A stretch of 64,000 bases of DNA. Origin: an uncultured Gemmatimonadales bacterium (GTDB lineage Bacteria > Gemmatimonadota > Gemmatimonadetes > Gemmatimonadales > GWC2-71-9). The DNA is taken from positions 516,601 to 580,600 of the forward strand of contig CAVOOB010000002.1 in the NCBI GenBank assembly GCA_963697435.1. Reading direction: 5' to 3'. Of the stretch, positions 2,638-50,190 are shown piece by piece. The stretch's first letter is position 1. Each line of letters begins with the position of its first letter. Both the position numbers and the translations under genes were made by a program. The notes under the pieces are model-generated. The model worked only from the letters and a program-made list of their open reading frames with translations, was not told the DNA's origin and did no database searches.

Positions 2638-2645
2638 GGTAGTAC

Positions 2646-3950: not shown

Positions 3951-4329
3951 TCGAGGCGTCCTTGCCGTTGCGGCGCCGGGCGTCCCGGCGTTCCAGGAGC
4001 TCAGCGTAGTGGCGCTGCTGGTCGGGGGTGAGTTGTGCGTTGATGTCCGAACGGAGTTCGGTGCGAAGTGTTTCAAATTTCGGCCGAATATCCTGCCAGA
4101 TAGAGTCCATCCCCGGCTCAAATCGTTTAAGGATGGCGCCGACGCTGTCACGCTGGATCGGCGTCAGCTCCAGGTCCTTCGACAGCCGAGAGAGGTACCC
4201 CGAAGGTCCCGAAGAGTGCCCCATGCCTGGCGGGCGGCGGTAGAGTGCCACGCCGCCGATGCCCGCGATCACCCCGAGGGCGAAGGCGACCAGCAGGAGG
4301 AGCGTGGCAGTGCGAGTGGACTTGGACAT
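3937..4329 (-). CDS. Periplasmic LTXXQ-motif protein (Spy/CpxP/ZraP-like)
   Basis: N-terminal TM/signal (ATLLLLVAFALGVIAGIGGVAL). Two LTPxQ motifs (LELTPIQRD, AQLTPDQQR). Basic C-terminal tail. Overlaps the tolC start by 14 nt. Confidence 0.7.
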   Translation of the reverse strand: MSKSTRTATLLLLVAFALGVIAGIGGVALYRRPPGMGHSSGPSGYLSRLSKDLELTPIQRDSVGAILKRFEPGMDSIWQDIRPKFETLRTELRSDINAQLTPDQQRHYAELLERRDARRRNGKDASNAPR

Positions 4330-4346
4330 TCGTAGTGCTCCCCGAC

Positions 4347-4691
4347 TCAGTAGGCCATGACCGCGAGAAGCGCGACGCTCCCGGCGGGCGACGAATCGCT
4401 GGCCAGTTCTACAAGCGAGCCGGCCGCCGTCGCCGAGGCGCTGCGGGCGGCCGGTTGCGGCGTGGTATCACCCAGCGTCGCTCCGAGGACCGCCAGAATC
4501 ACCGCGGCGGCGGCCAGTCCGGGCAGCGTCCAGCGGGCGACCGCGCGCCAGGCCGTCTCGTCCGCAGTGGCGACCGCCGCCACGCGCATCCGCGCGGCGA
4601 ACGCCGCGTCGTCCGGCGCAGAGAGGTGGGCGCGCAGGAGGGAACCGAGTTCCTCGTCGCGTCCGGTGGAGAATTCGTTGAATTCGGGCAT
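4347..4691 (-). CDS. Putative anti-sigma factor (single-pass membrane protein)
   Basis: 114 aa with one TM (WTLPGLAAAAVILAVLGATL). ATGA start/stop overlap with the upstream ECF sigma gene. Start trimmed to ATG at 4691. Confidence 0.6.
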   Translation of the reverse strand: MPEFNEFSTGRDEELGSLLRAHLSAPDDAAFAARMRVAAVATADETAWRAVARWTLPGLAAAAVILAVLGATLGDTTPQPAARSASATAAGSLVELASDSSPAGSVALLAVMAY

Positions 4692-5245
4692 CAGGCATCT
4701 CCTCCCATCGAACCCAGGGCCGCGCGCATGGTGCGGCGAGCGTGAAACACATCGGAGCGGACCGTGCCAACCGGCACGCCAAGCATCGTGGCGATCTCGT
4801 CGTGCACGTACCCCTCGGCGTCGTGCAGCACGAGGGCCATCCTGCGTCGTTCCGGCAGCGTCGCCAGGGCCCGGTTCAGCGCCTCCCGCAGGAGCGCCCG
4901 GTCGGTGTCGCGATCGGGCGTCGAGCCGGTGTCCGGCGTGGCCGCGGGAATCTCCTCGGTCCGCCGGAGTTTCCGGCGCCGCCGCAGGTCCGCCGCGGCA
5001 TTGACCACGATCCTCATGAACCACGGCCCAAACGGCCTGGCCGGGTCGAAGCGGTCCATCGCCCGCCAGGCGGAAAAGAGGGCGTCCTGCACCGCGTCAT
5101 CGGCGTCGTGCTGATCCAGGAGTGCCGCCCGGGCGACCCGGCGGGCCCGCTCGGCGTGTCGCTCCACGAGCAGCCCGAAGGCCTCGCTGCTGCCTCCGCA
5201 CGCCTGGGCGGCCAGCTCGGCATCGGTCACAGCAGATTTACGCAT
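4691..5245 (-). CDS. ECF-family RNA polymerase sigma factor (sigma-70 group 4)
   Basis: Region 2 (DADDAVQDALFSAWRAMDRFD..FGPWFMRIVVNAAADLRRRR) and region 4 HTH (EGYVHDEIATMLGVPVGTVRSDVFHARR). Confidence 0.9.
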   Translation of the reverse strand: MRKSAVTDAELAAQACGGSSEAFGLLVERHAERARRVARAALLDQHDADDAVQDALFSAWRAMDRFDPARPFGPWFMRIVVNAAADLRRRRKLRRTEEIPAATPDTGSTPDRDTDRALLREALNRALATLPERRRMALVLHDAEGYVHDEIATMLGVPVGTVRSDVFHARRTMRAALGSMGGDA

Positions 5246-5284
5246 CAGGGGCCGAAAGCGTTGAGGCGGGTGGGTCGGTGGGGT

Positions 5285-6670
5285 TCACAGGTCGATGCGG
5301 CCGCGGAACGCCTGGACGGCGGCCCCGATGGCCAGCCAGGTGCAGATGGCCGCCACGACGATGCCCATGGCCCTGGGAAGGACGAGAAAGAGGAAGCCCA
5401 AAGCGGTCAGCCCGACGGCCACCGGCCCGAAGACCGACCGCTGGGCTGCACTGGCCAGCCCCCGGACGGCGAGGCCTGTCTTGCGGCGGGCCTCTCGGAG
5501 CCGGCGCCGGCGCGGGAGAGGTGACGGGATGGCATGCTCGGCGGACTCCGGGGGCAGTCGCTCCAAGGTGCGTCCCTGCCCGCCGGCGTGCAGCTGTACC
5601 TCCGCGCTCTGTGCCATGTCCCGCCGAAACTGAGCCTCCAGCTGGCCTCCAAGTTTCGGGTCGTGGAGGAGCAAGTCCAGTTCGTAGTTTCCCACGAGGC
5701 TGGAGCTGTTGAGGTTGCTCGAGCCGACCCGGCACCAGGCGCCGTCGGCCACGATGGTCTTCGCGTGGAGCATCGGGCCTCCCCACTCGAAGATCCGCAC
5801 CCCTGCCTCGAGCAGCGCCCGGTAGCCGATCCGACTGAGGTTGCGAATGAGCGGCAGGTCGCTCGCCCCGGGGAGCAGGAGGCGGACGTCGACGCCATTG
5901 CGGGCGGCATCGAGGAGGGACTGGAAGAGCGAACGGGGGGCCACGAGATAGGCGTCTGTGATCCAGAGCCGGTCGACGGCACCGGCGGCCAGCAACTCCA
6001 CGACGCGCTGGATCCGTGCCCGTCGGGGCTCGCCGACGACGACGCCGACCTCGGCATGCCCCGCCGATGGAAACTCTCCAGCGTGCCGTCCCGGCGGAAT
6101 CGCCCCGCCGGCCAGGATCCAGATCTGCTCGAAGGCCTGGTCCAGTGCCATCGCTGCCGGACCCACGATCTGGATGGCAGTGTCGCGCCAGGGCGGAACG
6201 CCGCGTTCCGGGTCGCCGGCCCACTCGTCCCCGATACATAGGCCGCCAATGAAGGCGGTCCCGGCATCTGTGACCAGCAGCTTTCGGTGATCGCGGGAGA
6301 CGTTGCCAAGCAGGTCGAGGAATCGGGGCGGATTGAAGCGGCGGAGTTCGACGCCGGCGTGGTCCAGCTCGGACGCCAGCCGCCCCCCCAGCCCTCGGCT
6401 GCCGAGCCAGTCGGTCAGGAGGCGTACGGAGAGGCCGGCCCTGGCCCGTTCCATGAGGGCCTCGCAGAAGAGGCGGCCGGTGACGTCGTCGCGGATGATG
6501 TAGTTCTCGAGGTGGACCCACTGCTCGGCCTGCCGGATGGCTTCCAGCATGGCGGGGTACACCCGCGGGCCGTCGAGGAGGAGGCGAGTCGCATTGCCTG
6601 GAATGAAGCGCGTGCCTCCGGCCCGGGCGAGCGAACGCTCGGCGAGCGCGGCGACGGCCAGCGTGCTCAT
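5285..6670 (-). CDS. Cardiolipin synthase / phospholipase D family protein
   Basis: Two HKD motifs (HRKLLVTD...; HAKTIVADGAWCRVGSSNLN). C-terminal hydrophobic helices. The same-strand 487-aa ORF in another frame is Arg/Pro-rich and was rejected. Confidence 0.85.
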   Translation of the reverse strand: MSTLAVAALAERSLARAGGTRFIPGNATRLLLDGPRVYPAMLEAIRQAEQWVHLENYIIRDDVTGRLFCEALMERARAGLSVRLLTDWLGSRGLGGRLASELDHAGVELRRFNPPRFLDLLGNVSRDHRKLLVTDAGTAFIGGLCIGDEWAGDPERGVPPWRDTAIQIVGPAAMALDQAFEQIWILAGGAIPPGRHAGEFPSAGHAEVGVVVGEPRRARIQRVVELLAAGAVDRLWITDAYLVAPRSLFQSLLDAARNGVDVRLLLPGASDLPLIRNLSRIGYRALLEAGVRIFEWGGPMLHAKTIVADGAWCRVGSSNLNSSSLVGNYELDLLLHDPKLGGQLEAQFRRDMAQSAEVQLHAGGQGRTLERLPPESAEHAIPSPLPRRRRLREARRKTGLAVRGLASAAQRSVFGPVAVGLTALGFLFLVLPRAMGIVVAAICTWLAIGAAVQAFRGRIDL

Positions 6671-27306: not shown

Positions 27307-28674
27307 TCAACGAATATCCCCCGCCCTTGGCGAATGCGCCAGCGCCAGGCGCGCCTCTTCGCCCGCGGCCGCGGTCAGGTCCTGGTCGCCCATGGCCACG
27401 CCGACCTTCTTCAGGAACGCGTTGGGCGGTTCGCCACCGGCGAATACCCACATCCAGTCGTTCGGTAGTTCGGTCACAGTGCCGCCGACGGAGATCAACA
27501 CCGACTGCTCGCGCACTTCCGTCGGCTGGGATTCGAAGAGCACGCGGAGCTTCTTCCCTTTCACGGCCTCCTGCAGCTTCCTGGCGTTCCGCTCCTTGAT
27601 CCGGCTGAACTCCGCCTTCCGATAGGAGAGGGTCACCTGGTTCCCCTTCTGATACGCCAGGCCGAGCGCAGCCTCCACCGCACTGTCGCCCCCGCCGACC
27701 ACGAGAATCTTCGAATCGACGTAGGCGTCCGCCTCGATCAGGCTGTACATCACCTTGGGCAGTTCCTCTCCCGGGATGTTCAGCTTTCTCGGCGTCCCAC
27801 GGCGGCCGAGGGCCAGGACGACATGCCGGGTCCGGTAGGTGCCGCCCGTGCTCGTGATGCGGAACGTCGCGTCAGCTTCCCGGTCGATCGACTGCACCTT
27901 TTCGCCAGTGCGAATCTCAAGTCCCGCCTCCTTGATCACGGCACTCCAGAATTCAAGCAGCTCCTCCTTGGAAATTTCGAGCTTCTTGAATTTGCCGTGG
28001 AGCGGGAACTCCACCGGACTCGTCATCACCAGCTTTTGCCTGGGATACTTGGCCACCGTCCCCCCGACCGCTTCCTGCTCGAGGGTCACGTAGGTGAGCG
28101 CCCGTTCCACGGCGCGCAGCGACGCGCTCAGCCCACCGGGGCCCGCGCCGACGATGCACACGTCGCGGACGTCGGGCGCGCTGGGTTGTGAGGCGACCCG
28201 GCGGGCGATCGTGTCCATGCATTCGCGGCCCTGGTTCACCGCGTTCTTGATCAGCGCCAGCCCGCCGAGCTCGCCGATGATGAACAGGCCGGGGATGTTG
28301 CTCTCGAATTCCCGCGAGAGCCGCGGCATGTCGGCGCTGATGCTCGGGTTGGCCATCACGATCTCGATGGCGCCGACCGGGCAGACCTCGGCGCAGAGCC
28401 CATGGCCGATGCACTTGTGCCCGTTGATGATGGCGGCCTTGCCCGCGATCACGGCCAGGACATTCCCTTCCGGGCAGACGTCGATACAGGCGCCGCAGCC
28501 GATGCAGTGCGACACGTCGATGTGCGGATGCTGCGCCCGCGGTCCGCTCGAATGAAGCTTGCCGCGTTCGGCGGCGGCCAGCGCCGCCTGCTCCCGGCGG
28601 TGGGTCTTCCGGATGTGGAGGACCAGCGGGCCGATGAGGAAGAGGCCAAAGACGACGTAAATCAGCAGGTCCAT
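27307..28674 (-). CDS. Membrane-anchored 2x[4Fe-4S] ferredoxin domain fused to FAD/NAD(P)-binding pyridine-nucleotide-disulfide-oxidoreductase-like domain
   Basis: N-terminal TM (MDLLIYVVFGLFLIGPLVLHI) followed by RKTHRRE (positive-inside). CIGCGACIDVCP and CIGHGLCAEVCP clusters. Dinucleotide folds VCIVGAGPGGLSAS and ILVVGGGDSAVEAAL. ATG at 28674 is preferred over the TTG at 28716 used by the track. Confidence 0.85.
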   Translation of the reverse strand: MDLLIYVVFGLFLIGPLVLHIRKTHRREQAALAAAERGKLHSSGPRAQHPHIDVSHCIGCGACIDVCPEGNVLAVIAGKAAIINGHKCIGHGLCAEVCPVGAIEIVMANPSISADMPRLSREFESNIPGLFIIGELGGLALIKNAVNQGRECMDTIARRVASQPSAPDVRDVCIVGAGPGGLSASLRAVERALTYVTLEQEAVGGTVAKYPRQKLVMTSPVEFPLHGKFKKLEISKEELLEFWSAVIKEAGLEIRTGEKVQSIDREADATFRITSTGGTYRTRHVVLALGRRGTPRKLNIPGEELPKVMYSLIEADAYVDSKILVVGGGDSAVEAALGLAYQKGNQVTLSYRKAEFSRIKERNARKLQEAVKGKKLRVLFESQPTEVREQSVLISVGGTVTELPNDWMWVFAGGEPPNAFLKKVGVAMGDQDLTAAAGEEARLALAHSPRAGDIR

Positions 28675-28919: not shown

Positions 28920-29045
28920 CCACGAGAGGGCGTCCAATCCAACGTATATGAGTTAACATGTTGTTGTACAACTATTTACGCTACTTCTTCATGATTTGCT
29001 CATTCGGGTAGGAACCTTGCTGAATATGGGTCCGTATTCCTACGG
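28920..29045. promoter_or_regulatory. AT-rich island with clustered palindromes in the divergent intergenic region (candidate promoters/operator)
   Basis: The only markedly AT-rich stretch for many kb. GTTAAC (28952-57), AACATGTT (28955-62), perfect 10-bp palindrome GTTGTACAAC (28963-72), TCATGA and ATGA-N5-TCAT (about 28989-29003). It lies between divergent starts at 28674 and 29069. Confidence 0.45.
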
Positions 29046-29068: not shown

Positions 29069-30115
29069 ATGACCCCCCACCAGATGGGGGGCGGGGGCGC
29101 GTCGGCTGGCACCCACTCGACCGAAAGCTCGATGTCCACTTCGAATTTGGCTCCCGCCCCTCGCGTTGCTGCCCTGACCGAACGCCCCGTCGCGCCATCG
29201 GCGCCCGTACGCGCACATGTCCCCCGGCGCCCAGTGCCGAAGGCGAAGCGGTCGAAGGCGATGACCGCCGCCCTCGTCTTCGGCGCGGGGCTGGTGGCGT
29301 TGAATCTATTCGGAATGCGGTACTACCTGCTGCCTCGCGCCGAGCAGGTTCGCGACCCGCTCCATGCCTGGCTGCGTCCCTCAGGGTACCTCGGGCAGAC
29401 GGCGGGCGTCCTCGCGCTCCTGATCTTTCTCTTCCTCTGGTTGTACCCGCTTCGGAAGAAGTTCCGGTGGCTCGCCTTCACCGGCGCCATCTCCAAGTGG
29501 CTGAACGTACACGTGCTGGCCGCGCTCGGCCTCCCCCTCCTGGTGGCGGCGCACGCGACCTGGCAGTTCGGGGGGGTCATCGGCCTTGGATTCTGGTCGA
29601 TGATGCTGGTCTGGTTGAGCGGCATCGTCGGTCGATACATCTACGCCAGGATTCCGCGGGGCCAGGCCGGCGTCGAGCTCACGATCGATGAGATCAGCAC
29701 CCAGCGGCAGGAGCTGCTGAACGAGATCGCCGAGCTGTCGGGACTCGAGGCCAAGGAAGTCGAGGCGGTGCTGGCGCCTGACACGGCGCCGACGGTGGGC
29801 CTTGGGTTGTGGCAGACCATGCGCCGGATGGTTGCCGACGACCTCGGTCGGCGACGCGCGGCCGCTCGCCTGCGCCGCCAGATCAAGTTGCGCCGCCCGA
29901 TGCAACGGCGCAGCGACGCCGCAGTGCTGAAGGAAGTCCTTCGCCTCGCCAACCGTGAAATGGCCATGGTACAGCAGGCTCGCATGCTCGGCGCCACGCA
30001 GAACATCCTCCGGTTCTGGCATGTGGCCCACCGCCCTCTGGCGGTGACGGCGCTGGTGGCGGTCATCATCCACGTCATGGTGGTCGTGTCGTTGGGCGCC
30101 ACGTGGTTCCGGTAG
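29069..30115 (+). CDS. Polytopic membrane protein with two H-x13-H pairs in TM helices (candidate di-haem b-type transmembrane electron carrier)
   Basis: About 5 TM. H148-x13-H162 (NVHVLAALGLPLLVAAH) and H321-x13-H335 (HRPLAVTALVAVIIH). A roughly 120-aa charged helical cytoplasmic insert sits between TM4 and TM5. The start is uncertain (ATG 29069, 29132 or 29261). The 3' end overlaps the next gene. Confidence 0.7.
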   Translation: MTPHQMGGGGASAGTHSTESSMSTSNLAPAPRVAALTERPVAPSAPVRAHVPRRPVPKAKRSKAMTAALVFGAGLVALNLFGMRYYLLPRAEQVRDPLHAWLRPSGYLGQTAGVLALLIFLFLWLYPLRKKFRWLAFTGAISKWLNVHVLAALGLPLLVAAHATWQFGGVIGLGFWSMMLVWLSGIVGRYIYARIPRGQAGVELTIDEISTQRQELLNEIAELSGLEAKEVEAVLAPDTAPTVGLGLWQTMRRMVADDLGRRRAAARLRRQIKLRRPMQRRSDAAVLKEVLRLANREMAMVQQARMLGATQNILRFWHVAHRPLAVTALVAVIIHVMVVVSLGATWFR

Positions 30116-32157
30116 GCGAGGGCACGACCGGTGTGTTCCGCGGACTCGTTCGCGCATGCCTCCTGGCCCTCGGCTGGGTGGTGCTGATGTCCACGCCGCT
30201 GGCGGGACAGATCTCGCCGGGCCCGCTCGCAGCCGCGCACGCGACGCTCGAGGGACCGACCCAGTGCACCACCTGCCACGGCAGCCGGCGGGACGCCATG
30301 ACCGGCCAGTGCGCGGCCTGTCACAAGGATATTGGCCGATTGCTCGACCAGGGGCGGGGCTACCACGGCAGCGCCGAAGTGAAGGGCACACCCTGCGCCT
30401 CCTGTCATCCGGATCACGCCGGGAAAGGCTTCGAGATGGTGGAATGGCCGGATGGCGGCATGAAGAGCTTCGACCACAAACGCGCTGGGTGGGCGCTTGC
30501 GTTGAAGCACGCCGAGGCCACGTGCGCGGATTGTCACACCGACGAGTTCCAGGTGCCGGGAGTGAGGGATCTCTCCGTTCGAACGACCGGGCAGGGCTAT
30601 ACCGGTCTGGACCCCACCTGTACCAGTTGCCACGAGGACATCCATCGCGGGGCGCTCAAGCAGAACTGCACGGTATGCCACGATGCCGGTTCGTGGTCCG
30701 TCACCCCGGGGTTCGACCACGACACGACGGCGTATGCGCTCACTGCCAGGCACGCCGATGTGAAGTGCGACGACTGTCACCTCGACGCTCGGCTCTCACC
30801 CCGGAGCGACGGGAAGGGGCACCTGATCCCCGTGTACAAGCCGGTGTCGTTCGAGTCCTGCGCCAGCTGCCACACCGACCCGCACAGTGGGGGGCTGGGC
30901 CCGAAGTGCGCCGACTGCCATAGCACGCGCGGGTTCCAGGTCATCGACAAGAACCGGTTCGACCATGACAGAACCAAGTATCCGCTGCGCGGCAAGCACG
31001 TGACCACGGCCTGCGCCAGGTGCCACAAGGACTTCTCGACGCCGGCCCTGAAGACGCCGAAGTTCGCCACTTGCGTCGAGTGCCACACGGACGCCCACAA
31101 CGGGACCGCCACTCTCGCCGGCAGGCGGGTCGATTGCGCCTCGTGCCACTCGGTCAACGGATTCGCCCTGTCGACGTATACGACCGCGAGCCATGCCACG
31201 ACCCCGTACCCGCTTGAGGGCAAGCACCTGACGGTGAAGTGCGCCGCCTGCCATAGCCGGAGCACCGCGACGACTGCCGCGAAGACGCTCGGCAGTGCCA
31301 GGGTCGTGATACGGCCGAAGTACGCACAGTGCACGGACTGCCATGCTGACGATCATGGCGGCCAACGAATGGCGAGCACCAACAAGGGCGAGTGCGCCGC
31401 CTGCCACCGTGTGACAGGGTGGACTCCGAGCACCTTCGACAGTGCCGCACACGCACAGACGAATCTGGCCCTCGATGGTCGCCACCAGGAGATCGCCTGC
31501 GTGGCCTGTCACGGCCTCGCGCGCGCCGAGCTCCCGCCGATGACCGGGACGGCGACGATCGGCAAGGCTGGATTCCGGTTCCGGATTACCGAGACGGAGT
31601 GCGCCGCCTGCCACACCGATCCGCACCGTGGCCGATTCTCCGACGGGGGCTCCGGGGTCACGCCAATGGGTTGCCCCGCCTGCCATGGCATGCGGGCCTT
31701 CCGGCCGTCGACCACCGACATCGCGGCACACGCCCGATTCGAGTTTCCACTGGAGGGTGCGCACCGTGCCACCCCCTGCTCAGCCTGTCACGACGAACTG
31801 ACGCGCCCTGCCTCCGCCGCCCGGTCCACGCTGGTCCGGGGCTCGGGCGGGTTTGCCGACCTCCGGTTCGAGGCAACGCGGGAATGCGCCGCTTGCCACG
31901 AGACGCCGCACGGCGATCAGTTCGCCGCCTGGGACGCCCGGGGAGGCTGCGCCGCTTGCCACACGGTGGCCGCCTTCGTCCCGGCGGCCAACTTCGATCA
32001 CGACACCGACGCCTCGTTTTCGACCAGGGGCGCCCACGAACGGGTGCCGTGTGCGCGGTGCCATGTGCGTGATGCGGCCGCCCTACCCACGGAACCGTTG
32101 CGCTATCGCCCGTTGTCGGGGCGCTGCGAGGCCTGCCACGGCAAGGAGTCACCATGA
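30103..32157 (+). CDS. Secreted multihaem cytochrome c with 23 CXXCH motifs
   Basis: I counted 23 CXXCH in the translation. Signal peptide (ACLLALGWVVLMSTPLAGQ), no lipobox. Six recognisable three-haem modules CxxCHxDxHxG ... CxxCH ... FDH..T.y.L.G.H....CxxCH. The start is GTG at 30103 or GTG at 30133. Confidence 0.9.
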   Translation: MVPVGEGTTGVFRGLVRACLLALGWVVLMSTPLAGQISPGPLAAAHATLEGPTQCTTCHGSRRDAMTGQCAACHKDIGRLLDQGRGYHGSAEVKGTPCASCHPDHAGKGFEMVEWPDGGMKSFDHKRAGWALALKHAEATCADCHTDEFQVPGVRDLSVRTTGQGYTGLDPTCTSCHEDIHRGALKQNCTVCHDAGSWSVTPGFDHDTTAYALTARHADVKCDDCHLDARLSPRSDGKGHLIPVYKPVSFESCASCHTDPHSGGLGPKCADCHSTRGFQVIDKNRFDHDRTKYPLRGKHVTTACARCHKDFSTPALKTPKFATCVECHTDAHNGTATLAGRRVDCASCHSVNGFALSTYTTASHATTPYPLEGKHLTVKCAACHSRSTATTAAKTLGSARVVIRPKYAQCTDCHADDHGGQRMASTNKGECAACHRVTGWTPSTFDSAAHAQTNLALDGRHQEIACVACHGLARAELPPMTGTATIGKAGFRFRITETECAACHTDPHRGRFSDGGSGVTPMGCPACHGMRAFRPSTTDIAAHARFEFPLEGAHRATPCSACHDELTRPASAARSTLVRGSGGFADLRFEATRECAACHETPHGDQFAAWDARGGCAACHTVAAFVPAANFDHDTDASFSTRGAHERVPCARCHVRDAAALPTEPLRYRPLSGRCEACHGKESP

Positions 32158-33902
32158 GACGCCTGATCTGGCTTCCACTCCTGGCGCTGTCGCTCGCGTT
32201 GGTCGCGGGCGACCTCGCCGCGCAGGAACGGACCACCTCACCGCACGGCGACCTCCAGACCCAGTGCACGGTCTGCCACGGGCCGGATAGCTGGACGGCG
32301 CTTCAGATCAGCAGCCAGTTCGATCACGGGAAACTCGGCTTCCCGTTGACCGGCGCGCACGGCGCGACCACGTGCCGGGCATGTCATACCTCGCTGGACT
32401 TCAAGCTGGCGAGCTCGGACTGCACCGTGTGTCACAGCGACAACCATCGTGGCGAGTTGGGCCCGAACTGTGCCCGGTGTCACACGACGCGCACCTTTGT
32501 CGACCGGGACCTCATGGTTCCGGCGCATCGGTTGACGCGCTTCCCCCTGTCCGGCGGCCACCTGGCGGTCGAGTGCACGCAGTGCCATGCACCGGGCGTT
32601 GGTGGGCAGATGCAGTTCGTAGGGACCTCCACGGCGTGCTTCTCCTGTCACCAGCCCGATTACAACGCTGCGGCGAATCACGTCACGTCGAGCTTCCCCA
32701 CGAGCTGTGAGGGGTGCCACTCGACGGTGGCCTGGAACGCGGCAAACCTCGGGGCGGGGAACCACCCGACGTCGCCCATCGCCCTCACCGGCGTGCACAG
32801 CAGCAACCTGGTGACCTGCGCCCAGTGCCATACGTCGCAGCCCTACACCGCGGTCGCGCGCACCTGTGACGGTTGCCACCACCAGGAGTACCTGTCCACC
32901 AGCGATCCGAACCACGCCGCCTCGGGGTTCTCGACCGACTGTGTGTCGTGTCACCAGCCGGTCGCCAACTGGGCCGGTGCCAAGTTCAATCACCCCTCGG
33001 CGCCGATCGCCCTGACGGGTCCCCACAGCGTCAACCTGGTGGAGTGCACGCAGTGCCACACCAGCCAGCCGTACTCCTCGGTGAGGCAGACCTGCGACGG
33101 CTGCCACCATGCGGAGTACGTGGCCACGACCGACCCGAGCCATGTCGCGGCGGGATACAGCACCGACTGCGCTTCCTGCCACCAGGTCGTCGCCAACTGG
33201 GTGGGTGCCACGGCCAACCACCCGACCACCCCGATCGCGCTCACGGGCGTGCATAGCGCCAACCTCATCCCGTGCACGCAGTGTCATACCACCTCACCCT
33301 ATTCAACGGTGAAGCAGACCTGTGACGGCTGCCACCACGCAGAGTACGTGGCCACTACCGACCCAAATCACGTCTCGGCAGGGTATGGCATCGACTGCGC
33401 CTCCTGCCACCAGCCGGTGGCGAACTGGGCAGGGGCGAACGCCAACCATCCCACCACACCGATCGCGCTGACGGGCGTGCACAGCGCCACTATGGTCACG
33501 TGCACCCAGTGCCACACGACTTCCCCGTACTCGAGCGTGCAGCGCACCTGCGACGGATGCCATCATCCCGAATACGTGCAGCCGACCGACCCCAACCACG
33601 TCATGGCCAACTTCTCGACCACCTGCACGGCCTGCCATGGGTTGGTAGCGAACTGGGCAGGGGCGAAGTTCACCGCGCACGATGGGAGCGTGTCGCAGTT
33701 CCGGATCTACAGCGGCAAGCATAACAACCGGTGGAGCAACTGCGCGGAGTGCCACGCTGCCGGACAGTCGTATGCCGCCACGCCGGCGTTGCTCTGCCTG
33801 AATTGCCACGCGAAAGTCCAGACGGACAAGCACCGCGGGAAGAACTACACGCCCAGCGACTGCGTGCGGTCGGGCTGCCACGCGAACGGATCCAACCCGT
33901 GA
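32154..33902 (+). CDS. Secreted multihaem cytochrome c with 21 CXXCH plus one C-terminal CX4CH motif
   Basis: ATGA overlap with the upstream cytochrome gene. Signal peptide MRRLIWLPLLALSLALVAGDLAAQ, no lipobox. 21 CXXCH counted, plus CVRSGCH near the C-terminus. Recurrent CDGCHH. Confidence 0.9.
   Translation: MRRLIWLPLLALSLALVAGDLAAQERTTSPHGDLQTQCTVCHGPDSWTALQISSQFDHGKLGFPLTGAHGATTCRACHTSLDFKLASSDCTVCHSDNHRGELGPNCARCHTTRTFVDRDLMVPAHRLTRFPLSGGHLAVECTQCHAPGVGGQMQFVGTSTACFSCHQPDYNAAANHVTSSFPTSCEGCHSTVAWNAANLGAGNHPTSPIALTGVHSSNLVTCAQCHTSQPYTAVARTCDGCHHQEYLSTSDPNHAASGFSTDCVSCHQPVANWAGAKFNHPSAPIALTGPHSVNLVECTQCHTSQPYSSVRQTCDGCHHAEYVATTDPSHVAAGYSTDCASCHQVVANWVGATANHPTTPIALTGVHSANLIPCTQCHTTSPYSTVKQTCDGCHHAEYVATTDPNHVSAGYGIDCASCHQPVANWAGANANHPTTPIALTGVHSATMVTCTQCHTTSPYSSVQRTCDGCHHPEYVQPTDPNHVMANFSTTCTACHGLVANWAGAKFTAHDGSVSQFRIYSGKHNNRWSNCAECHAAGQSYAATPALLCLNCHAKVQTDKHRGKNYTPSDCVRSGCHANGSNP
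32760..33671 (+). repeat. Four in-frame tandem repeats of 228 bp (76 aa, three CXXCH each) inside the second cytochrome gene
   Basis: Units start at 32760, 32988, 33216 and 33444, each beginning NHP(T/S)xPIALTG.HS...C(A/T)QCHT..PY....(R/Q)TCDGCHH.EY....DP.H......(T/I)(D/T)C.(S/A)CH..VANW.GA. A degenerate half unit precedes them (CFSCHQPDYNAAANH...CEGCH). Confidence 0.9.
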
Positions 33903-35944
33903 GCCCACGCGCGAGGCGCCTGACAGGGCTGCTCGGAATGGCATTGCTGGCGGCGTGCACCGCCGGCGAGGCCCGCGCCCAGGACTCGACCGAGGTGGTC
34001 GCGCTCTACATGAAGGAAGGGGCGGTTATCCGCGGGCGTATCCTCGCGGACAACGGCCCGAACGGTATTCGGATCCGGAGCCAGCAGTCGGGCGCGACGT
34101 TCGTGGTTGCGGCCGCGCAGATCGACAGCGTGGTACGGCCCAAAGCGTCCGTATCGCCATCGACGCCCGTGCCCGAGCCGATGGTACCTGCCTCGCAAGC
34201 ACTGGACACTCCGGCACCACCTCCGAGTCCTGCGGCGGCCACCGCGGTGGACACCGCACCCATGACGATCGATGTGGCCTCGCCGACCACAGTTATGGAA
34301 GGACTCGCGCCGCCACCCAGTGCGGTGCCGGCGCAAGACATGATCGCGCCAGTCGTCATCGACACCGCCCCGCCCGACACGGCCGCGCACCGGACGACCG
34401 TCACTTTCATGTCCGGCGCCGAGATCTACATCGGGGCCGGCCGGCTTGACGGGTTGCTGGAGGGCTCGGAGGTCTCGGTCATGCAGGGAGACGACGTCGT
34501 CGGGATACTGCGTGTGAAATACGTCGCCTCCCACCGCTCCGCGTGCGAGGTTGTGTCGGGGGCGACCGGAATCGCGCTGGGGGATGTGATTCAGTTTCGC
34601 CGGCAGATGGCGTCCCCCGAAATGCTCTCCGCGTCGTCGATGTCCGGGCCGCCCCGCCCGCGGCGGATGAGCGGGCCCGGGCTCCACGGCCGGTTCGGGA
34701 CCCGATACCTGCGAGCGACCACGACGACGATGGCCGGCGGACAGGAACTGGGAAGCAACGGCTTCGACCAGCCCTCGCTCGACGCCCGCATCAACGGCAT
34801 CGGCCTCGGCGGCACACCGCTCGGGGTGGCGCTCGATCTGCGGACCCGTCAGACGACCACGACCTCGGCTGGCCGCACGGAGGTGGATGGACATACGCGG
34901 GTTTATCAGGCCGTCATGTACTGGAATCAGCCTGGCGCAGGCTTCCGCGCGGCCGCGGGCCGGCAGTACCTGACGGCGGTCAGTTCCATCGGCCTTCTGG
35001 ACGGCGCGTTGCTCGAGTTGAATGGGGGAAGAGTGTCGGTCGGTGCGTTCGCCGGATTCGAGCCTGACATCGCCACACTCGGGTTCTCCAGCACGGTCCA
35101 CGACTTCGGCCTCTACGCGAGCGTGCACAACCGGCCAGGGACGTCGACGGTGACGTCGGCGACCATTGGTGCCGTCGGGTCCTATGAAGGAGGAGATGCG
35201 CGCCGGGAGTGGGGCATCGCGCAGTTCAACATGAACAACCGGTACGTCTCGCTCTACCTGCTGCAGGAGCTCGATTATTACCGGCCGTGGAAACTCGCGG
35301 GGCCGAACGCCGAGGAAAGCGCCATTTCGGCGACGAGCCAGTTTGCGAACCTCTCCTTCCGGGCGACCCGCTGGCTGGCGATCAATGGTACCTATGACAA
35401 ACGCCGCAGCGTGCCGACCCTTCGCGACTTCACCAATCCGGAGACCGAATTCGATGACACCTACCGCCAGGGCTACGGAGGTGGTGTGCAGGTGACCGGC
35501 CGACAGGTGTACGGCGGTGGCGACTGGCGGCGGAGCACCGGTGGAAGTTCGGGCGGCGCCAATTCCTTCACCACGACCCTCGGCGTCAATCGCATCACCA
35601 AGTTCAACGTCGGACTGTCGGCCCGGGCGACCTGGTACCAGAATGATGTCTTCTCCGTCGACACCACCGCCGCGGTGCTGCAGACCTCCGGGCAACTCTA
35701 CTCCGGGCGGATGAGCCTCGACCCCTTCGGACCGATTCATCTTGATCTGAGCGCGGGCCTCCGCCAGGAGGACAACCCGATCGCGCTGGGGCTGCAGAAG
35801 TCGACCTGGTACGGCGTTGACATGGATCTGAACGTCGGGCGCGCCTGGTTCATCTCAGTCTCAGCGCTCCGACAGAACGATACTGCCAACCCCGGGACCA
35901 GCACCCTGACGCAGATCTACGGCGGGGTGACCTGGCGGTTCTAG
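33899..35944 (+). CDS. Putative outer-membrane beta-barrel protein with N-terminal domain and Pro/Ala-rich linker
   Basis: GTG at 33899 overlaps the cytochrome stop (GTGA). Signal sequence with possible lipobox LAAC or SPase I site ARA-QD. Pro/Ala-rich segment about aa 80-165. The C-terminal roughly 430 aa show alternating hydrophobic/polar strand pattern with Gly/Tyr/Asn-rich turns, ending ...IYGGVTWRF (terminal aromatic). Confidence 0.75.
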   Translation: MSPRARRLTGLLGMALLAACTAGEARAQDSTEVVALYMKEGAVIRGRILADNGPNGIRIRSQQSGATFVVAAAQIDSVVRPKASVSPSTPVPEPMVPASQALDTPAPPPSPAAATAVDTAPMTIDVASPTTVMEGLAPPPSAVPAQDMIAPVVIDTAPPDTAAHRTTVTFMSGAEIYIGAGRLDGLLEGSEVSVMQGDDVVGILRVKYVASHRSACEVVSGATGIALGDVIQFRRQMASPEMLSASSMSGPPRPRRMSGPGLHGRFGTRYLRATTTTMAGGQELGSNGFDQPSLDARINGIGLGGTPLGVALDLRTRQTTTTSAGRTEVDGHTRVYQAVMYWNQPGAGFRAAAGRQYLTAVSSIGLLDGALLELNGGRVSVGAFAGFEPDIATLGFSSTVHDFGLYASVHNRPGTSTVTSATIGAVGSYEGGDARREWGIAQFNMNNRYVSLYLLQELDYYRPWKLAGPNAEESAISATSQFANLSFRATRWLAINGTYDKRRSVPTLRDFTNPETEFDDTYRQGYGGGVQVTGRQVYGGGDWRRSTGGSSGGANSFTTTLGVNRITKFNVGLSARATWYQNDVFSVDTTAAVLQTSGQLYSGRMSLDPFGPIHLDLSAGLRQEDNPIALGLQKSTWYGVDMDLNVGRAWFISVSALRQNDTANPGTSTLTQIYGGVTWRF

Positions 35945-39051: not shown

Positions 39052-40881
39052 TCAACGAGGCCCGAGCACCTCCAGCACCACCGGCACCCGGCCAAGCGGG
39101 GCGGCGATCTGCACACCCTGCACCCGCGGGCGGACCGCTTCCAGCATCTCGCGGGCAATCTGCACCCCCTCCGCAAGCCCCGCCTCCCGGCCGGCTGCGC
39201 TCGCGACCCGCATCCGCTCAAGGACAGCCTGCGGCACCGACACGCCGGGCACCTCGTTGGCCAGGAACTCGGCGTTCCTGAGCGACACGAGCGGCCAGAG
39301 TCCCGCGATGACCGGAACGGCGTGTGTGGACGCGCGGTCCAGAAACCGGTCCAGCTGCTCGAGGTCGAACACCGGCTGGGTGACGACGTACTCGGCGCCT
39401 GCGTCCACTTTCCACGCCAGCCGAGACATTTCCCGCTCGAAATCGGGGGCGGTGGGGTTGGCGCCCACGCCGATCACGAACTTGGTCGGCGCGCCGATGG
39501 CGTTGCCGCCCGGGTCGAGGCCCTGGTTGAGGCGGGAGACGAGGTTGGTCAGCCCGATCGCGTCGATGTCGAACACGGCGGTCGCGTCGGGGTAGGGCCC
39601 CATCTTCGGCGGGTCGCCGGTGATGATGAGGAGATTGCGGAGCCCGGCCGCCGCCGCGCCGAGCAGGTCGGAAAGCATGCCCAGGAGATTGCGATCGCGG
39701 CAGGCGTAGTGGACGACCGCCTCGAGCCCGACCTCCCGCTCGATCAGGAGGCCCGAAATGAGGGCGCCCATGCGGCTCTGGGCGCGAGGGCCGTCGGGCA
39801 CGTTGACGGCGTCCACGCCGGCGGCCTTCAGTGCGCGCACCTGCGCGTACATCGGTGCCGGATCGACCCCCTTGGGTGGGACGATTTCCACGGTAGTGAC
39901 GAACGCGCCGGCGGCCAGCTTGGCTCCCAGTTTCGAGCGCTCACCGAGGGGGAGGGCAGGGACGCCTTGCGCGGCGGCTGGCGCAACCGTCGTGTGGTGG
40001 TGGCGGGGCGACGCGCTCTGTGCAAACCCGACGATGGCCTTGATGTGCTCGGGCGTGGTGCCGCAACACCCGCCGACGATGCGTGCCCCCGCCTCGACCA
40101 TGCGCTTCGCGTAGGTCGCCATGTACTCTGGCGACGCCATGTACATCTTCCTGCCCCCGACGTCGCGCGGGAGGCCGGCGTTGGGCATGGCGCTGAGCGG
40201 GAGGTCGACGACCCGCGCCAGGTGCTCAATGGCCTCGAGGACTCCGTGGGGGCCGACCGAACAATTTACCCCGATGACATCGACTCCCATCGCGGCAATC
40301 GCAGGCCCAAACGCGGAGGGCGCCGTCCCGTAGAGTGTGCGTCCGTCCTCACCGACGGTCATCTGGGCGATGATCGGCAGGTCGGAGAGGGCGCGGACGC
40401 CGCTGACGGCGGCGCGAAGTTCTTCGACGTCGCTGAAGGTCTCCAGGAGAAAGCCGTCCACCCCGCCGGCCAGGAGGCCGGTGGCCTGCCGCGCGAACGC
40501 CGCCTGCGCTTCTTCCACCGAGGTTTCGCCGAACGGTTCGATGCGGATGCCGAGTGGGCCGATGGCGCCGAGCACGCAGGCGCGATCGCCGGCGGCCTCC
40601 CGGGCGAGCCTGGCCGCCGCTTCGTTGATGGTCTCGGTGTCGTCGGCGAGCCCGTGGTGCGCCAGCTTGATCGGGTTCGCGCCAAAGGTGTTGGTCTCGA
40701 TCAGTTCGGCCCCGGCCCGCACATACTCGCGGTGAATCTCCCGGATGACATCGGGCTGCCGGAGCACCAGTTCATCGTAGCAGACGTTGAGGAAGACACC
40801 CTTGCTGTAGAGCATCGTCCCCATGGCGCCGTCGGAGACGTGCACGTGGCCGTCGGCGAGCAGTTGGCGCAGGTCAGGCAT
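39052..40881 (-). CDS. Bifunctional homocysteine S-methyltransferase / 5,10-methylenetetrahydrofolate reductase (YitJ-like)
   Basis: N-terminal Hcy-binding domain (DGAMGTML..., [19 protein letters not shown]). C-terminal MTHFR TIM barrel (VEIVPPKG, NVPDGPRA, ITGDPP). Confidence 0.85.
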   Translation of the reverse strand: MPDLRQLLADGHVHVSDGAMGTMLYSKGVFLNVCYDELVLRQPDVIREIHREYVRAGAELIETNTFGANPIKLAHHGLADDTETINEAAARLAREAAGDRACVLGAIGPLGIRIEPFGETSVEEAQAAFARQATGLLAGGVDGFLLETFSDVEELRAAVSGVRALSDLPIIAQMTVGEDGRTLYGTAPSAFGPAIAAMGVDVIGVNCSVGPHGVLEAIEHLARVVDLPLSAMPNAGLPRDVGGRKMYMASPEYMATYAKRMVEAGARIVGGCCGTTPEHIKAIVGFAQSASPRHHHTTVAPAAAQGVPALPLGERSKLGAKLAAGAFVTTVEIVPPKGVDPAPMYAQVRALKAAGVDAVNVPDGPRAQSRMGALISGLLIEREVGLEAVVHYACRDRNLLGMLSDLLGAAAAGLRNLLIITGDPPKMGPYPDATAVFDIDAIGLTNLVSRLNQGLDPGGNAIGAPTKFVIGVGANPTAPDFEREMSRLAWKVDAGAEYVVTQPVFDLEQLDRFLDRASTHAVPVIAGLWPLVSLRNAEFLANEVPGVSVPQAVLERMRVASAAGREAGLAEGVQIAREMLEAVRPRVQGVQIAAPLGRVPVVLEVLGPR

Positions 40882-40901: not shown

Positions 40902-44630
<3,729 letters not shown>

Positions 44631-47825: not shown

Positions 47826-49193
47826 TCAGGCGAGTCCGATCGCGATGGCGGCCGCCAGGGCCACGGTGGCCAGCGCCGTCAGCAGCAGCATCACCGGGAC
47901 CGCGAACTTCCACCACTCCTCGAGCCGGACGCCGACGGCCGCGATCATGGCCAGCAGGGCGCCGTTGGTCGGGTTGACGAGGTCCATCAGCCCGACCCCA
48001 AACTGGTAGGCCAGCACCGTGACCTGGCGCGAGAGTCCAAGCAGGTCGGAGAGCGGCACCAGCAGCGGCATCGTGAGGACCGCCTGGCCGCTGGTGCTGG
48101 GGACCGGCAGGTGAAGGAGACCGTGCGCCGCCATCATTCCGAGGGCGGTAAGCGTGACCGGCAGGTCCGCCACGGGGGCGAAGAGCCCGCGGACAACGGT
48201 GTCCACGATGTGACCCTGGTGCATGACCACGTAAATGGCCCGGGCAAACCCGATGATCATCGCGGCGTACGCCATCGACTTGAAGCCGTCGACGTAGGCG
48301 TCGGCGGTGCCCTCGAGTCCGAGTTTGCCGACGAGCCCGATGACGATCCCCATCGCGAAGAAGAGCGCCGACATCTGGTCGAAGTCCCATTCCCAGCGCA
48401 GCACCCCGACCACGAAGAGCGCGAAGCTGCCGATGATGAGCAGGAGGATGGCCTGCATTCGCCAGCCGCTCGCCCCCGCGGCGGCCTCCTGCGCCGTGGT
48501 GGCGACCCCCGCCGTCTGGGTCCGTGCGGCATAGCGCATGGTGTACCAGATGTAGAGGGCGAGTGCGGGAATCAGGAAGGCGATCCGAAAGGTCGACCCG
48601 CTGAGGAGCGGCAGGCCGGCGACCTTCTGTGCGATGCCGACCATGAACGGATTGATGGGGCTGAAGGTGGCGCCGACCACCGCGGCGCCGATGCTCATCG
48701 CCACCGCGGTGACGCGGTTGAAGCCGAGGCGTGCCACGAGGAGGACGAGGATCGGGGCGAACGCGATCAGCTCCTCCTGCATCTGGATGAGGATGCCACC
48801 GGTGGCAAAGACCACGCAGGAGATCGGGATGACAAGGGTGTCGTGGCCGCGCAATCGGGCGACCAGCCCGTCGAGGAGGGTGCCGAAGACGCCGGTGCGT
48901 TCCACCACCGTCCAGGCGGCACCGACCAGGAAGACGAGGAAGATGACGGAGGCCGCATCGGCCATCCCCTTCGGGATGTCGACGAGTGCCTCGGGCAGGG
49001 AGACCGGCGCCGGGGCGACGGTCCGGTAGGTCCCGGGAACCACCACCTGCCGTCCGGTGGCAGGGTCTTCCTGGCGATCGTATTGCCCCGCCGGAACCAC
49101 CCAGGTCAGGGCCGCCGCCGCCAGGACGAACCCGGTCAGCAGGACGAGGGGATGTGGGAGGCGAAGCCCCGTCAGCTTCAAAGAGGCCTGCAC
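47826..49193 (-). CDS. YfcC/DcuC-like (C4-dicarboxylate anaerobic carrier superfamily) membrane transporter
   Basis: About 12 TM. N-terminal KL..LR.PHPLVLL..F...AALTWVVPAGQYDR pattern typical of YfcC-type proteins. Start set to GTG at 49193. Confidence 0.75.
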   Translation of the reverse strand: MQASLKLTGLRLPHPLVLLTGFVLAAAALTWVVPAGQYDRQEDPATGRQVVVPGTYRTVAPAPVSLPEALVDIPKGMADAASVIFLVFLVGAAWTVVERTGVFGTLLDGLVARLRGHDTLVIPISCVVFATGGILIQMQEELIAFAPILVLLVARLGFNRVTAVAMSIGAAVVGATFSPINPFMVGIAQKVAGLPLLSGSTFRIAFLIPALALYIWYTMRYAARTQTAGVATTAQEAAAGASGWRMQAILLLIIGSFALFVVGVLRWEWDFDQMSALFFAMGIVIGLVGKLGLEGTADAYVDGFKSMAYAAMIIGFARAIYVVMHQGHIVDTVVRGLFAPVADLPVTLTALGMMAAHGLLHLPVPSTSGQAVLTMPLLVPLSDLLGLSRQVTVLAYQFGVGLMDLVNPTNGALLAMIAAVGVRLEEWWKFAVPVMLLLTALATVALAAAIAIGLA

Positions 49194-49447
49194 GACTTGG
49201 CGACCGGGATGGCGCGCCCGCAGGCGATGGACTCGTTCATCCCGGCGATGATCGGGCCGCAGGCCGTGGTCTGTGCCTGCTGCACGGCCTCCGACTCGGA
49301 GGCGCCCGAGGCCGTCGCGGTGTTGCTGCGCCCGTTGTACTCGACCGTGACGGTGCACTCCACGTTCTGGCTGTTGAGCGTGGAGTAGAGGAGCATGGCG
49401 CCGAAGCCCACGGCGACGGCGATCGTGATCATGGTGCTGCGTTTCAT
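49178..49447 (-). CDS. Small secreted/membrane-anchored Cys-containing protein (89 aa)
   Basis: Strong GC3 bias. N-terminal hydrophobic helix (MITIAVAVGFGAMLLY). Four Cys in the mature part. Its 3' end overlaps the yfcC-like start by 16 nt. Confidence 0.55.
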   Translation of the reverse strand: MKRSTMITIAVAVGFGAMLLYSTLNSQNVECTVTVEYNGRSNTATASGASESEAVQQAQTTACGPIIAGMNESIACGRAIPVAKSCRPL

Positions 49448-49464
49448 GGAGGACTCCGGAAAGG

Positions 49465-50190
49465 TCAGCCGTTGACCACGGCGCCGATGACGCCGGGAAG
49501 AGCCCCGAGAATCCAGACGATGGCGGCCGCGAGCAGCGCCTTGCTCATCGGAATCTTACCGACCACCCGTAGACCCACGGCCAGGAGAAACGTCACCCAG
49601 AGAGTGAAGAGGTCCAGCCGCACGAACAGGCTCATCATGAGGGCGGACGCGGAATCGGGATCGAAGAAGCGTGCCGGGCCCACGGAGATGGACGCCGATC
49701 CGTTCAATTGTTCGGCTGGAAGCATCAGGGCCAGCGCCCCACCGACGATCGTGCCGAGCAGCTTCGGGAAGTAGCTGTAGGAGGCGATCATCATCGCCGC
49801 GCCGACGGTCACCGCCGCGCCCACGATCTTTCCGGCGACCCAGGTCAGGAGCCCGACCAGCAACACGGCGATTGGGACGGCGATGAGGGGCCCGATCATG
49901 GCGAACTTGCTGGCCACGGCCCGCTGCGTCTCCATCATCTCTTCCGTCATTTGGGGGTTCTTGGCCATCGCCGCGGCCATCCCACGGGAGATGTCGGCAT
50001 CGATGATCGGCATGAACGCCTCCCGCAGCCCGAGGTAGAGCCCGGCGAAGACCACGACGAGAACGAGGAACGGCACCAAGAAGCCAGAATCTTTGCGTCG
50101 TTCGAACACGGCCGACGGCTTGACGAAGATCTCCAGGAAATCTTCCCAGAGCGCGGCGCGTTCGGGGGCTGGGGCGGCAGGAGCGGTCAT
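49465..50190 (-). CDS. Yip1-family membrane protein
   Basis: N-terminal cytoplasmic segment (ALWEDFLEIFVKPSAVF) followed by 5 TM, as in Yip1 domain proteins. Confidence 0.65.
   Translation of the reverse strand: MTAPAAPAPERAALWEDFLEIFVKPSAVFERRKDSGFLVPFLVLVVVFAGLYLGLREAFMPIIDADISRGMAAAMAKNPQMTEEMMETQRAVASKFAMIGPLIAVPIAVLLVGLLTWVAGKIVGAAVTVGAAMMIASYSYFPKLLGTIVGGALALMLPAEQLNGSASISVGPARFFDPDSASALMMSLFVRLDLFTLWVTFLLAVGLRVVGKIPMSKALLAAAIVWILGALPGVIGAVVNG

Follow-up and report, generated by a model that had tools for sequence, protein, structure and literature searches.

A conserved 23-haem cytochrome of Gemmatimonadota as a candidate periplasmic wire in a trans-envelope electron conduit

We analysed a window of 64,000 nucleotides from an uncultured Gemmatimonadales bacterium (GenBank assembly GCA_963697435.1, contig CAVOOB010000002.1, positions 516,601 to 580,600), in which an initial annotation had described a multihaem cytochrome c made of repeated three-haem modules. 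This protein, here called C23, is encoded by the second gene in a compact operon on the plus strand. The other genes of the operon encode a membrane protein (Mem), a second multihaem cytochrome (C21) and a lipoprotein with a predicted barrel, and an iron-sulphur (Fe-S) flavoprotein (FerPyr) is transcribed divergently. Positions are those of the window.

Architecture of the 23-haem cytochrome

The gene and its parts are as follows.

30103-32157, plus strand: C23, 23-haem c-type cytochrome, 684 aa counted from GTG 30103
30133-30207, plus strand: Sec-type signal peptide MFRGLVRACLLALGWVVLMSTPLAG, as read from the sequence and the orthologue pattern
30208-30456, plus strand: module D0, haems 1-3, diverged; invariant H36, H78 and H95, nearly invariant M56
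30457-31983, plus strand: modules D1-D6, haems 4-21, homologous three-haem units of 76-93 aa, with boundaries at 30457, 30700, 30946, 31174, 31432 and 31711
31984-32154, plus strand: module D7, haems 22-23, truncated; invariant H623 and H635

The annotated open reading frame (ORF) and its 23 CXXCH motifs in 684 aa were reproduced exactly, with one motif per 29.7 residues where about one per 30 had been stated. There are 47 Cys and 47 His in the protein. All but one of the Cys (46 of 47) lie inside CXXCH motifs; the 47th, within the signal peptide, is not kept in orthologues. The C23 sequence holds no CX3CH, CX4CH or CXXCK variant. For a protein of this composition, chance alone would yield about 0.2 CXXCH motifs (680 x 0.069^3), and its GC content at third codon positions (GC3 = 0.80) is like that of other real genes in this 67% GC window. 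The 5' end at GTG 30103 overlaps the stop of the upstream gene Mem. Judged by its cleaner N-terminus, GTG 30133 (674 aa) is the likelier start. Cleavage is predicted after MFRGLVRACLLALGWVVLMSTPLAG and before QISPGPL, with no lipobox, as the initial annotation had also read it, and all orthologues show the same pattern: a hydrophobic stretch, then A or G, then Q-(I/V)-SPGPL.

Cut in the phase of the Pfam c7 model, C23 has the layout 3 + 6x3 + 2 = 23 haems. This corresponds to eight units (D0, D1-D6 and D7), or 7 2/3 three-haem units in one chain, and the pattern of a full module is F-x-H-x10-H-x4-CXXCH / CXXCH-x3-H / CXXCH-x4-[WF]. The six similar modules annotated earlier are confirmed as three-haem units, with their extent shifted: they span haems 4-21 instead of beginning at haem 5 after four haems outside any module and leaving one haem at the end, and haems 1-3 and 22-23 belong to diverged or truncated modules. 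Likewise, the reported seven copies of CxxCH-x-D-x-H are five copies of C..CH.D.H, or six of the looser C..CH...H, and the number seven is reached with an N-terminal CHPDH variant.

Pairwise identity between the modules is 26-41%. A hidden Markov model (HMM) built from D3 only, using 60 orthologues, matched every other module of C23 in register, with 17-58 bits. When the sequence was shuffled with the CXXCH positions held, the same model found a mean of 0.87 stretches above 10 bits. Because these CXXCH-fixed shuffles score low, the periodicity is not a mere by-product of motif density, and the internal repetition on which the earlier module reading depended is real.

Conservation, haem ligands and haem number

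We searched about 5.8 billion protein sequences and scored 8000 candidates, among which at least 6060 matched C23 at E <=1e-10. The best 120 of these 6060 are 49-100% identical to C23 and mostly 620-684 aa long, with six shorter ones (550-619 aa); the few with named sources come from Gemmatimonadota metagenome-assembled genomes (MAGs). Exactly 23 CXXCH motifs are present in 113 of the 120. For residue conservation we used an alignment of 60 orthologues, whose identity to C23 is 48-82%. None of the 23 CXXCH motifs varies in it, and the number of invariant His outside these motifs is exactly 23, one per haem: three in each full module from D0 to D6 and two in D7. Every haem of C23 can thus be bis-His, as the initial annotation had supposed from the extra His residues. 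The sole conserved Met is M56 in D0 (90% of the orthologues), and no conserved Met was found in D1-D7. Taken together, these patterns point to C23 most likely being an exported single chain that would carry 23 low-spin bis-His haems.

The ligand pattern also bears on whether C23 could be a catalytic multihaem reductase or oxidase of the kind of NrfA, HAO or the octahaem enzymes. The C23 family profile gives weak matches to NrfA structures (E 2e-4 to 8e-4), which cover only generic CXXCH stretches. The protein has no CXXCK or other variant motif, and each of its 23 haems has an invariant spare His, with no open coordination site apparent. Since no haem lacks a conserved sixth ligand, we rejected this reading and give it hardly any weight.

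Length is conserved as strictly as the ligands. Across the 60 orthologues the mature protein has 640-655 aa, and module lengths are mostly constant within about 2-4 aa, D2 ranging from 74 to 83 aa. This constancy implies that the duplications are old and that each module is individually orthologous, not part of a dynamic repeat array. C23 most likely goes back to the old duplication of a three-haem module resembling c7.

Haem number was further compared between loci. In a synteny scan with one genome per species, 373 stretches encode a C23 relative; the best 80 of these 373, together with two loci from long contigs, gave a set of 82 loci (L001-L082). The C23 haem count is 23 in 80 of the 82, and the protein at the C21 position carries 9-58 CXXCH motifs across related loci. 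A frozen C23 beside an evolvable partner cytochrome of 9-58 haems is the most striking result of this study. The pair amounts to a natural length experiment, in which 23 haems stay fixed in orthologues down to 45% identity and the partner drifts. The contrast between the two also makes it directly testable whether a diffusing shuttle or a fixed bridge takes electrons across the periplasm.

Relationship to known multihaem cytochromes

The strongest Pfam match of C23 is Cytochrome_C7 (PF14522), with 109.7 bits against a cutoff of 24.8 (E 6e-32) over 9 stretches. Further matches are Cytochrom_c3_2, Cytochrom_CIII (residues 46-107) and the MtrC/MtrF domain II/IV family PF22113 (64 bits, residues 450-601). 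The initial annotation had named both c7-type and doubled-CXXCH domains; the former was found, and the latter (Paired_CXXCH_1) was not reported for C23 at E <=0.01, some orthologues having a faint precomputed match.

A phmmer search with the single C23 sequence found no relative among the PDB sequences. The C23 family profile ranked Geobacter sulfurreducens GSU1996 first among its PDB relatives (3OV0, E 1.4e-6). About 300 residues and 11 CXXCH motifs align collinearly, profile positions 124-424 pairing with chain residues 26-317. Next came MtrC/OmcA (E 5e-5), then the 16-haem HMC (2e84 and 1z1n, E 1e-4 to 8e-4) and NrfA. We also compared the modules directly by hhalign, using a 36-sequence alignment of C23 modules, GSU1996 domains rebuilt from profile-search output and a PpcA sequence. 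The C23 modules aligned with GSU1996 domains B-D and PpcA at 82.5% probability (E 1e-5), with three CXXCH in register; the upstream His region of the C23 modules was left unaligned to c7. The reading of C23 as a polymer of c7/c3-like trihaem units, as first annotated, is therefore supported by the Pfam, 3OV0 and hhalign matches, and by homology with a characterised haem wire. C23 belongs to a kind of protein that is already known, the c7-domain polymers called 'nanowires of hemes', and is not a new kind.

To our knowledge, modular c7-type haem wires have been described almost only in Geobacter and its relatives, and GSU1996 is the sole experimentally characterised one. GSU1996 consists of four c7-type domains forming a linear haem wire of 12 nm, with edge-to-edge gaps of 3-5 A (PMC10138318, PMC11492766). 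Its relatives reach 27 haems in GSU2210, and GSU1996 carries one His-Met haem per domain (PMC10138318). Like the periplasmic GSU1996, GSU0592 and GSU2210, C23 is a single chain of three-haem modules of about 75-90 aa; it is predicted to be periplasmic too, and its number of haems is comparable to that of GSU2210. By contrast with the His-Met haems of GSU1996, C23 has 23 spare His and no conserved Met in D1-D7.

The sixth-ligand layout of C23 differs from that of c7 and GSU1996, as read from the motifs. Before the first CXXCH, GSU1996 and c7 have F-x-H-x2-H, whereas C23 has F-x-H-x10-H. GSU1996 and c7 have a Met or His shortly before the second CXXCH; in C23 the putative third ligand is a His after it (CH-x3-H). 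An all-bis-His variant with an altered ligand layout should be useful for learning how haem chains are built and tuned. The c7 proteins themselves, of about 70 aa, act as small periplasmic shuttles with one domain. PpcA and other c7 proteins share with C23 the three CXXCH of each unit and a number of His sufficient for all-bis-His ligation, but they are single domains, whereas C23 fuses 7 2/3 such units and spaces its ligand His differently. As for MtrC/OmcA, C23 lacks their decahaem layout, with pentahaem domains II/IV between beta-barrel domains I/III: no MtrC-type domain other than the PF22113 stretch was found in it, and the rest consists of c7-like repeats. A last difference from GSU1996 is the setting. 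GSU1996 belongs to Geobacter; C23 belongs to Gemmatimonadota, where its gene shares a fixed operon with those of membrane and barrel proteins.

Homology with GSU1996 suggests that the haems of C23 form one continuous chain. Scaled from 12 haems in 12 nm, this chain should be roughly 20-25 nm long, an estimate that is close to the width of a Gram-negative periplasm. The AlphaFold2 (AF2) model of C23 and the Foldseek search with it, both reported below, were uninformative, so the linear geometry and the length are taken from this homology.

The same homology raises the question of whether C23 is a store of electrons rather than a bridge. A role as capacitors and not as conduits has been proposed for proteins of the GSU1996 type (PMC10138318). 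C23 could by analogy be a periplasmic reservoir, holding up to 23 electrons when no external acceptor is at hand. That its closest solved relative is GSU1996 and that it has neither a membrane anchor nor a lipobox fit this idea. However, a store needs neither an exact haem number nor modules of near-fixed length, and a conduit agrees better with the close linkage of C23 to genes for an inner-membrane protein and an outer-membrane barrel, described below. We consider a reservoir as the function of C23 unlikely, and note that the capacitor and conduit roles are not mutually exclusive.

Partner genes of C23

The partners of C23 in the window are the following.

29069-30115, plus strand: Mem, upstream operon partner with 5 predicted transmembrane (TM) segments and no Pfam or NCBIfam family, its stop overlapping or abutting the C23 start
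32154-33902, plus strand: C21, partner multihaem cytochrome of 582 aa, whose start overlaps the C23 stop (ATGA)
32862-33602, plus strand: tandem repeat inside C21, 228 bp, 3.2 copies, 75% matches
33899-35944, plus strand: barrel lipoprotein with lipobox LLAAC, whose start overlaps the C21 stop (GTGA)
27307-28674, minus strand: FerPyr, divergently transcribed Fe-S flavoprotein

Mem belongs to a family of 2480 representatives at E <=1e-3 that carries no annotation. Five of its His are invariant (100%) in 73 orthologues, H148 and H162 in TM3 and H318, H321 and H335 in TM5, and all five are invariant also in a 42-sequence alignment. H148/H162 and H321/H335 form two pairs, each with x13 spacing. 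According to the positive-inside rule, one His of each pair would lie near each membrane face, the putative geometry of a transmembrane dihaem b protein. TM4 and TM5 are separated by a conserved helical insert, rich in Arg and about 120 aa long. The His pattern recalls the NOX/FRE ferric reductases, which have an FAD/NAD(P)H domain and two b haems on His pairs in two helices: Mem has its two pairs on two TM helices and always stands next to an NAD(P)H-type flavoprotein. The differences are that Mem gives no significant match, that its flavoprotein is separate, contains Fe-S clusters and belongs to another fold family, and that the haem b of Mem is putative. Matches of the Mem profile to a soluble helical stretch in the PDB were judged to be due to chance, and a Ferric_reduct match at E 3.2 was likewise not taken.

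Two distant or composite sequences of the Mem family deserve mention. In one distant member (P0491), the same His pattern stands at the C-terminus of a 742-aa protein. An apparent fusion of Mem, Fer4 and Pyr_redox (P0389) was rejected: its sequence runs into low-complexity stretches that resemble frameshifts, and the final TM helix is missing. Adjacent genes were probably joined here in error during gene calling.

FerPyr has a TM anchor at its N-terminus, with basic residues after it. The protein further contains a ferredoxin domain with 2x[4Fe-4S] and an FAD/NAD(P) domain of the YpdA/thioredoxin-reductase-like type. A large periplasmic multihaem cytochrome c, a haem-b membrane protein (for which Mem is the candidate here) and a cytoplasmic Fe-S protein are encoded together for the Hmc/Tmc complexes of Desulfovibrio (16-haem HmcA) as well. 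There, however, the cytoplasmic partner is HdrD-like and not a TrxR/YpdA-like flavoprotein, no partner families are shared, and the C23 cluster adds an outer-membrane barrel and a second cytochrome.

C21 is 27% identical to C23. It carries 21 CXXCH motifs and a C-terminal CX4CH, and its signal peptide has no lipobox. Each 228-bp repeat unit encodes a 76-aa three-haem module of the form ...C.QCH...CDGCHH...C.SCH..VANW. The CX4CH motif, CVRSGCH, follows the last canonical CXXCH near the C-terminus (window positions 33840-33902), and 42 of the 44 Cys of C21 lie in CXXCH motifs; CVRSGCH may be a 22nd, non-canonical haem site.

In the barrel lipoprotein, two small beta domains and a linker rich in Pro and Ala precede a predicted barrel of 22 strands, which ends in ...YGGVTWRF. 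Its AF2 model has a predicted local distance difference test score (pLDDT) of 77 and a predicted template modelling score (pTM) of 0.60, with 22 long strands over residues 261-680 and pLDDT values of 80-95 within the predicted barrel. Foldseek returned only large outer-membrane barrels (PapC/FimD ushers, porins and AlgE) with low template modelling scores, and MtrB was not among the top 50 structural matches. The protein matched no Pfam or NCBIfam family, and relatives numbered only 155 among the 8000 candidates scored. Its linker is disordered and of variable length, and the N-terminal quarter is poorly conserved, most matches having a coverage of 75-80%. The lipoprotein is a putative outer-membrane conduit.

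Periplasmic multihaem cytochromes are also combined with a large outer-membrane beta-barrel in the porin-cytochrome conduits MtrCAB of Shewanella, OmaB-OmbB-OmcB of Geobacter and PioAB/MtoAB. Unlike the Mtr- and Pcc-type barrels, the barrel of the C23 cluster has a lipobox, extra N-terminal domains and 22 predicted strands. The periplasmic component has 8-10 haems in Mtr and Pcc and 23 in C23, at whose estimated length no soluble shuttle would be needed. In addition, the inner-membrane partner is not CymA-, CbcL- or ImcH-like, unlike in the porin-cytochrome conduits.

Synteny and distribution of the cluster

The best 80 of the 373 stretches all come from MAGs, almost all of them Gemmatimonadales/Gemmatimonadaceae, with a few labelled Acidobacteriota. 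Of the 82 loci, 75 include FerPyr, 76 include Mem and 65 include the barrel gene, and most absences fall at contig ends. Gene order varies and linkage is kept. For example, the loci of one Gemmatimonadaceae subset carry FerPyr between Mem and C23, with all three on one strand, and in several loci the barrel gene and the variable cytochrome gene are inverted together. In the window, the stop codon of C23 overlaps the C21 start, and that of C21 the start of the barrel gene, an arrangement in which C23 would be co-transcribed with Mem, C21 and the barrel gene, and probably translationally coupled. The initial annotation had predicted a soluble periplasmic or secreted protein; the gene context suggests instead that C23 is a fixed part of an envelope-spanning complex and not freely soluble.

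The cluster is conserved and previously undescribed, is found almost entirely in Gemmatimonadota, and includes two unannotated families, those of Mem and the barrel. The literature that we searched, in which subscription journals were mostly uncovered, contained no description of it or of multihaem conduits in Gemmatimonadota.

The rearranged loci help to assign positions to the two cytochromes. One could suppose that C23 is the MtrA-like part, threading the 22-strand barrel, with the variable cytochrome in the periplasm or the roles permuted in some other way. The barrel gene does stand in the same operon as C23, and both the MtrC/MtrF domain II/IV match at residues 450-601 and the MtrC/OmcA structure matches point in that direction. 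Nevertheless, it is C21 and not C23 that lies directly upstream of the barrel gene and overlaps its start, and in the rearranged loci the barrel moves with the variable cytochrome, not with C23. Moreover, a constant length would match a gap of constant width such as the periplasm, and a variable length a part that faces outwards. A permuted arrangement of this kind therefore seems to us quite unlikely.

A putative trans-envelope electron route

We favour, with moderate confidence, the interpretation that C23 is a periplasm-spanning haem wire of fixed length within a trans-envelope electron conduit. In the route that we propose, FerPyr would oxidise a cytoplasmic reductant, passing electrons from its FAD to the 2x[4Fe-4S] domain. 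The electrons would then cross the inner membrane via the two b haems of Mem and run along the fixed-length 23-haem chain of C23 across the periplasm. Finally, the variable cytochrome and the barrel would deliver them to an acceptor outside the cell, for example Fe or Mn oxides or humics.

Several results weigh against this conduit. C23 scored 17.8 bits against the NCBIfam nanowire model TIGR04257 nanowire_3heme, below its cutoff of 40. Its AF2 model, built from a 60-sequence alignment and with no haems, has a mean pLDDT of 70.8 and a pTM of 0.39, with good confidence (75-90) only at residues 280-500, and Foldseek found no match for it in the PDB even at E 10. For Mem, Ferric_reduct was the only Pfam family at E up to 10; Ni_hydr_CYTB matched just one distant relative (E 9e-4, 19.4 bits against a cutoff of 30.1), and the Mem profile found no relative among the PDB sequences. 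On the outer side, no homology of the barrel to MtrB or OmbB was detectable, nor was a PioB-type family match found. Unlike the outer cytochromes of Mtr and Pcc, neither C23 nor C21 is a lipoprotein. In terms of energetics, exporting electrons from NAD(P)H in a way that bypasses quinones would consume membrane potential, not build it, and the cluster contains no quinol-oxidase-type gene. Lastly, mineral respiration in Gemmatimonadota did not appear in the literature searched, and we know of no member of the phylum that respires minerals. The capacitor proposal for GSU1996 belongs on this side of the balance too.

The direction of flow is a separate question, since nothing in the sequence fixes it. 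The wire might run inwards and supply cytoplasmic metabolism with electrons donated by a partner cell or by extracellular Fe(II), Mn(II) or reduced humics. MtoAB and PioAB, porin-cytochrome systems of iron oxidisers and phototrophs, share the architecture of the reducing systems (10.1101/2024.09.20.614158, PMC6831781). But an NAD(P)-type flavoprotein as end point needs uphill flow from Fe(II), and the cluster has no link to a cytochrome oxidase or a reaction centre. In addition, the all-bis-His haems of the characterised c3/c7 relatives are of low potential, which also counts against inward flow. All in all, we regard an inward wire as improbable and keep to the outward conduit.

A bolder version combines the whole cluster: the five genes would form an undescribed, largely Gemmatimonadota-specific envelope conduit that bypasses quinones, in which FerPyr is the membrane-anchored NAD(P)H Fe-S flavoprotein at the inner end, the strictly conserved haem number of C23 acts as a ruler of periplasm width, the C21-type cytochrome faces outwards with an evolvable length (9-58 haems) and surfaces through a new type of lipoprotein barrel, and Mem represents a new dihaem-b family. 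We put this forward tentatively, as possible and on balance doubtful. The cluster is in any case a candidate for extracellular electron transfer in Gemmatimonadota, a phylum widespread in soil and wastewater in which no such system has been described. If the conduit is real, this abundant soil phylum would have its first assigned machinery for extracellular electron transfer, and with the function confirmed, the annotation of Gemmatimonadota redox metabolism in metagenomes would change.

Further observations at the locus and in related genomes

In the divergent promoter region between FerPyr and Mem there is an AT-rich patch (28940-29000), in surroundings of otherwise 67% GC. A perfect 10-bp palindrome, GTTGTACAAC, lies in the same region at 28963-28972. 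It was not found at <=3 mismatches in 26 orthologous intergenic regions, and we therefore rejected it as a conserved operator.

Further cytochrome genes flank the cluster in some related genomes. At one locus (L002, positions 599-5391), there are a molybdopterin oxidoreductase and two small c7-like cytochromes, and CcmE adjoins FerPyr. At several others (L015, L022, L024, L025, L031 and L036), additional ORFs with 9-11 haems and with 16 haems lie upstream. The 23-haem gene also occurs in MAGs labelled Acidobacteriota or Polarisedimenticolia (L047, L065, L076 and L080), in L080 with the whole cluster on a 142-kb contig; horizontal transfer or mis-binning could account for these cases.

The genes flanking the cluster in the window are housekeeping genes (PBP4, acyl-CoA dehydrogenase, MetH, MsrB and peptidases). 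About 12 kb downstream, at 47826-49544 on the minus strand, is a DcuC-type anaerobic C4-dicarboxylate carrier, which may hint at an anaerobic lifestyle option for the organism. Closer by, also on the minus strand, a fused homocysteine S-methyltransferase and MTHFR of 609 aa (39052-40881) adjoins a full-length B12-dependent MetH of 1242 aa (40902-44630), so that two S-methyltransferase domains stand side by side.

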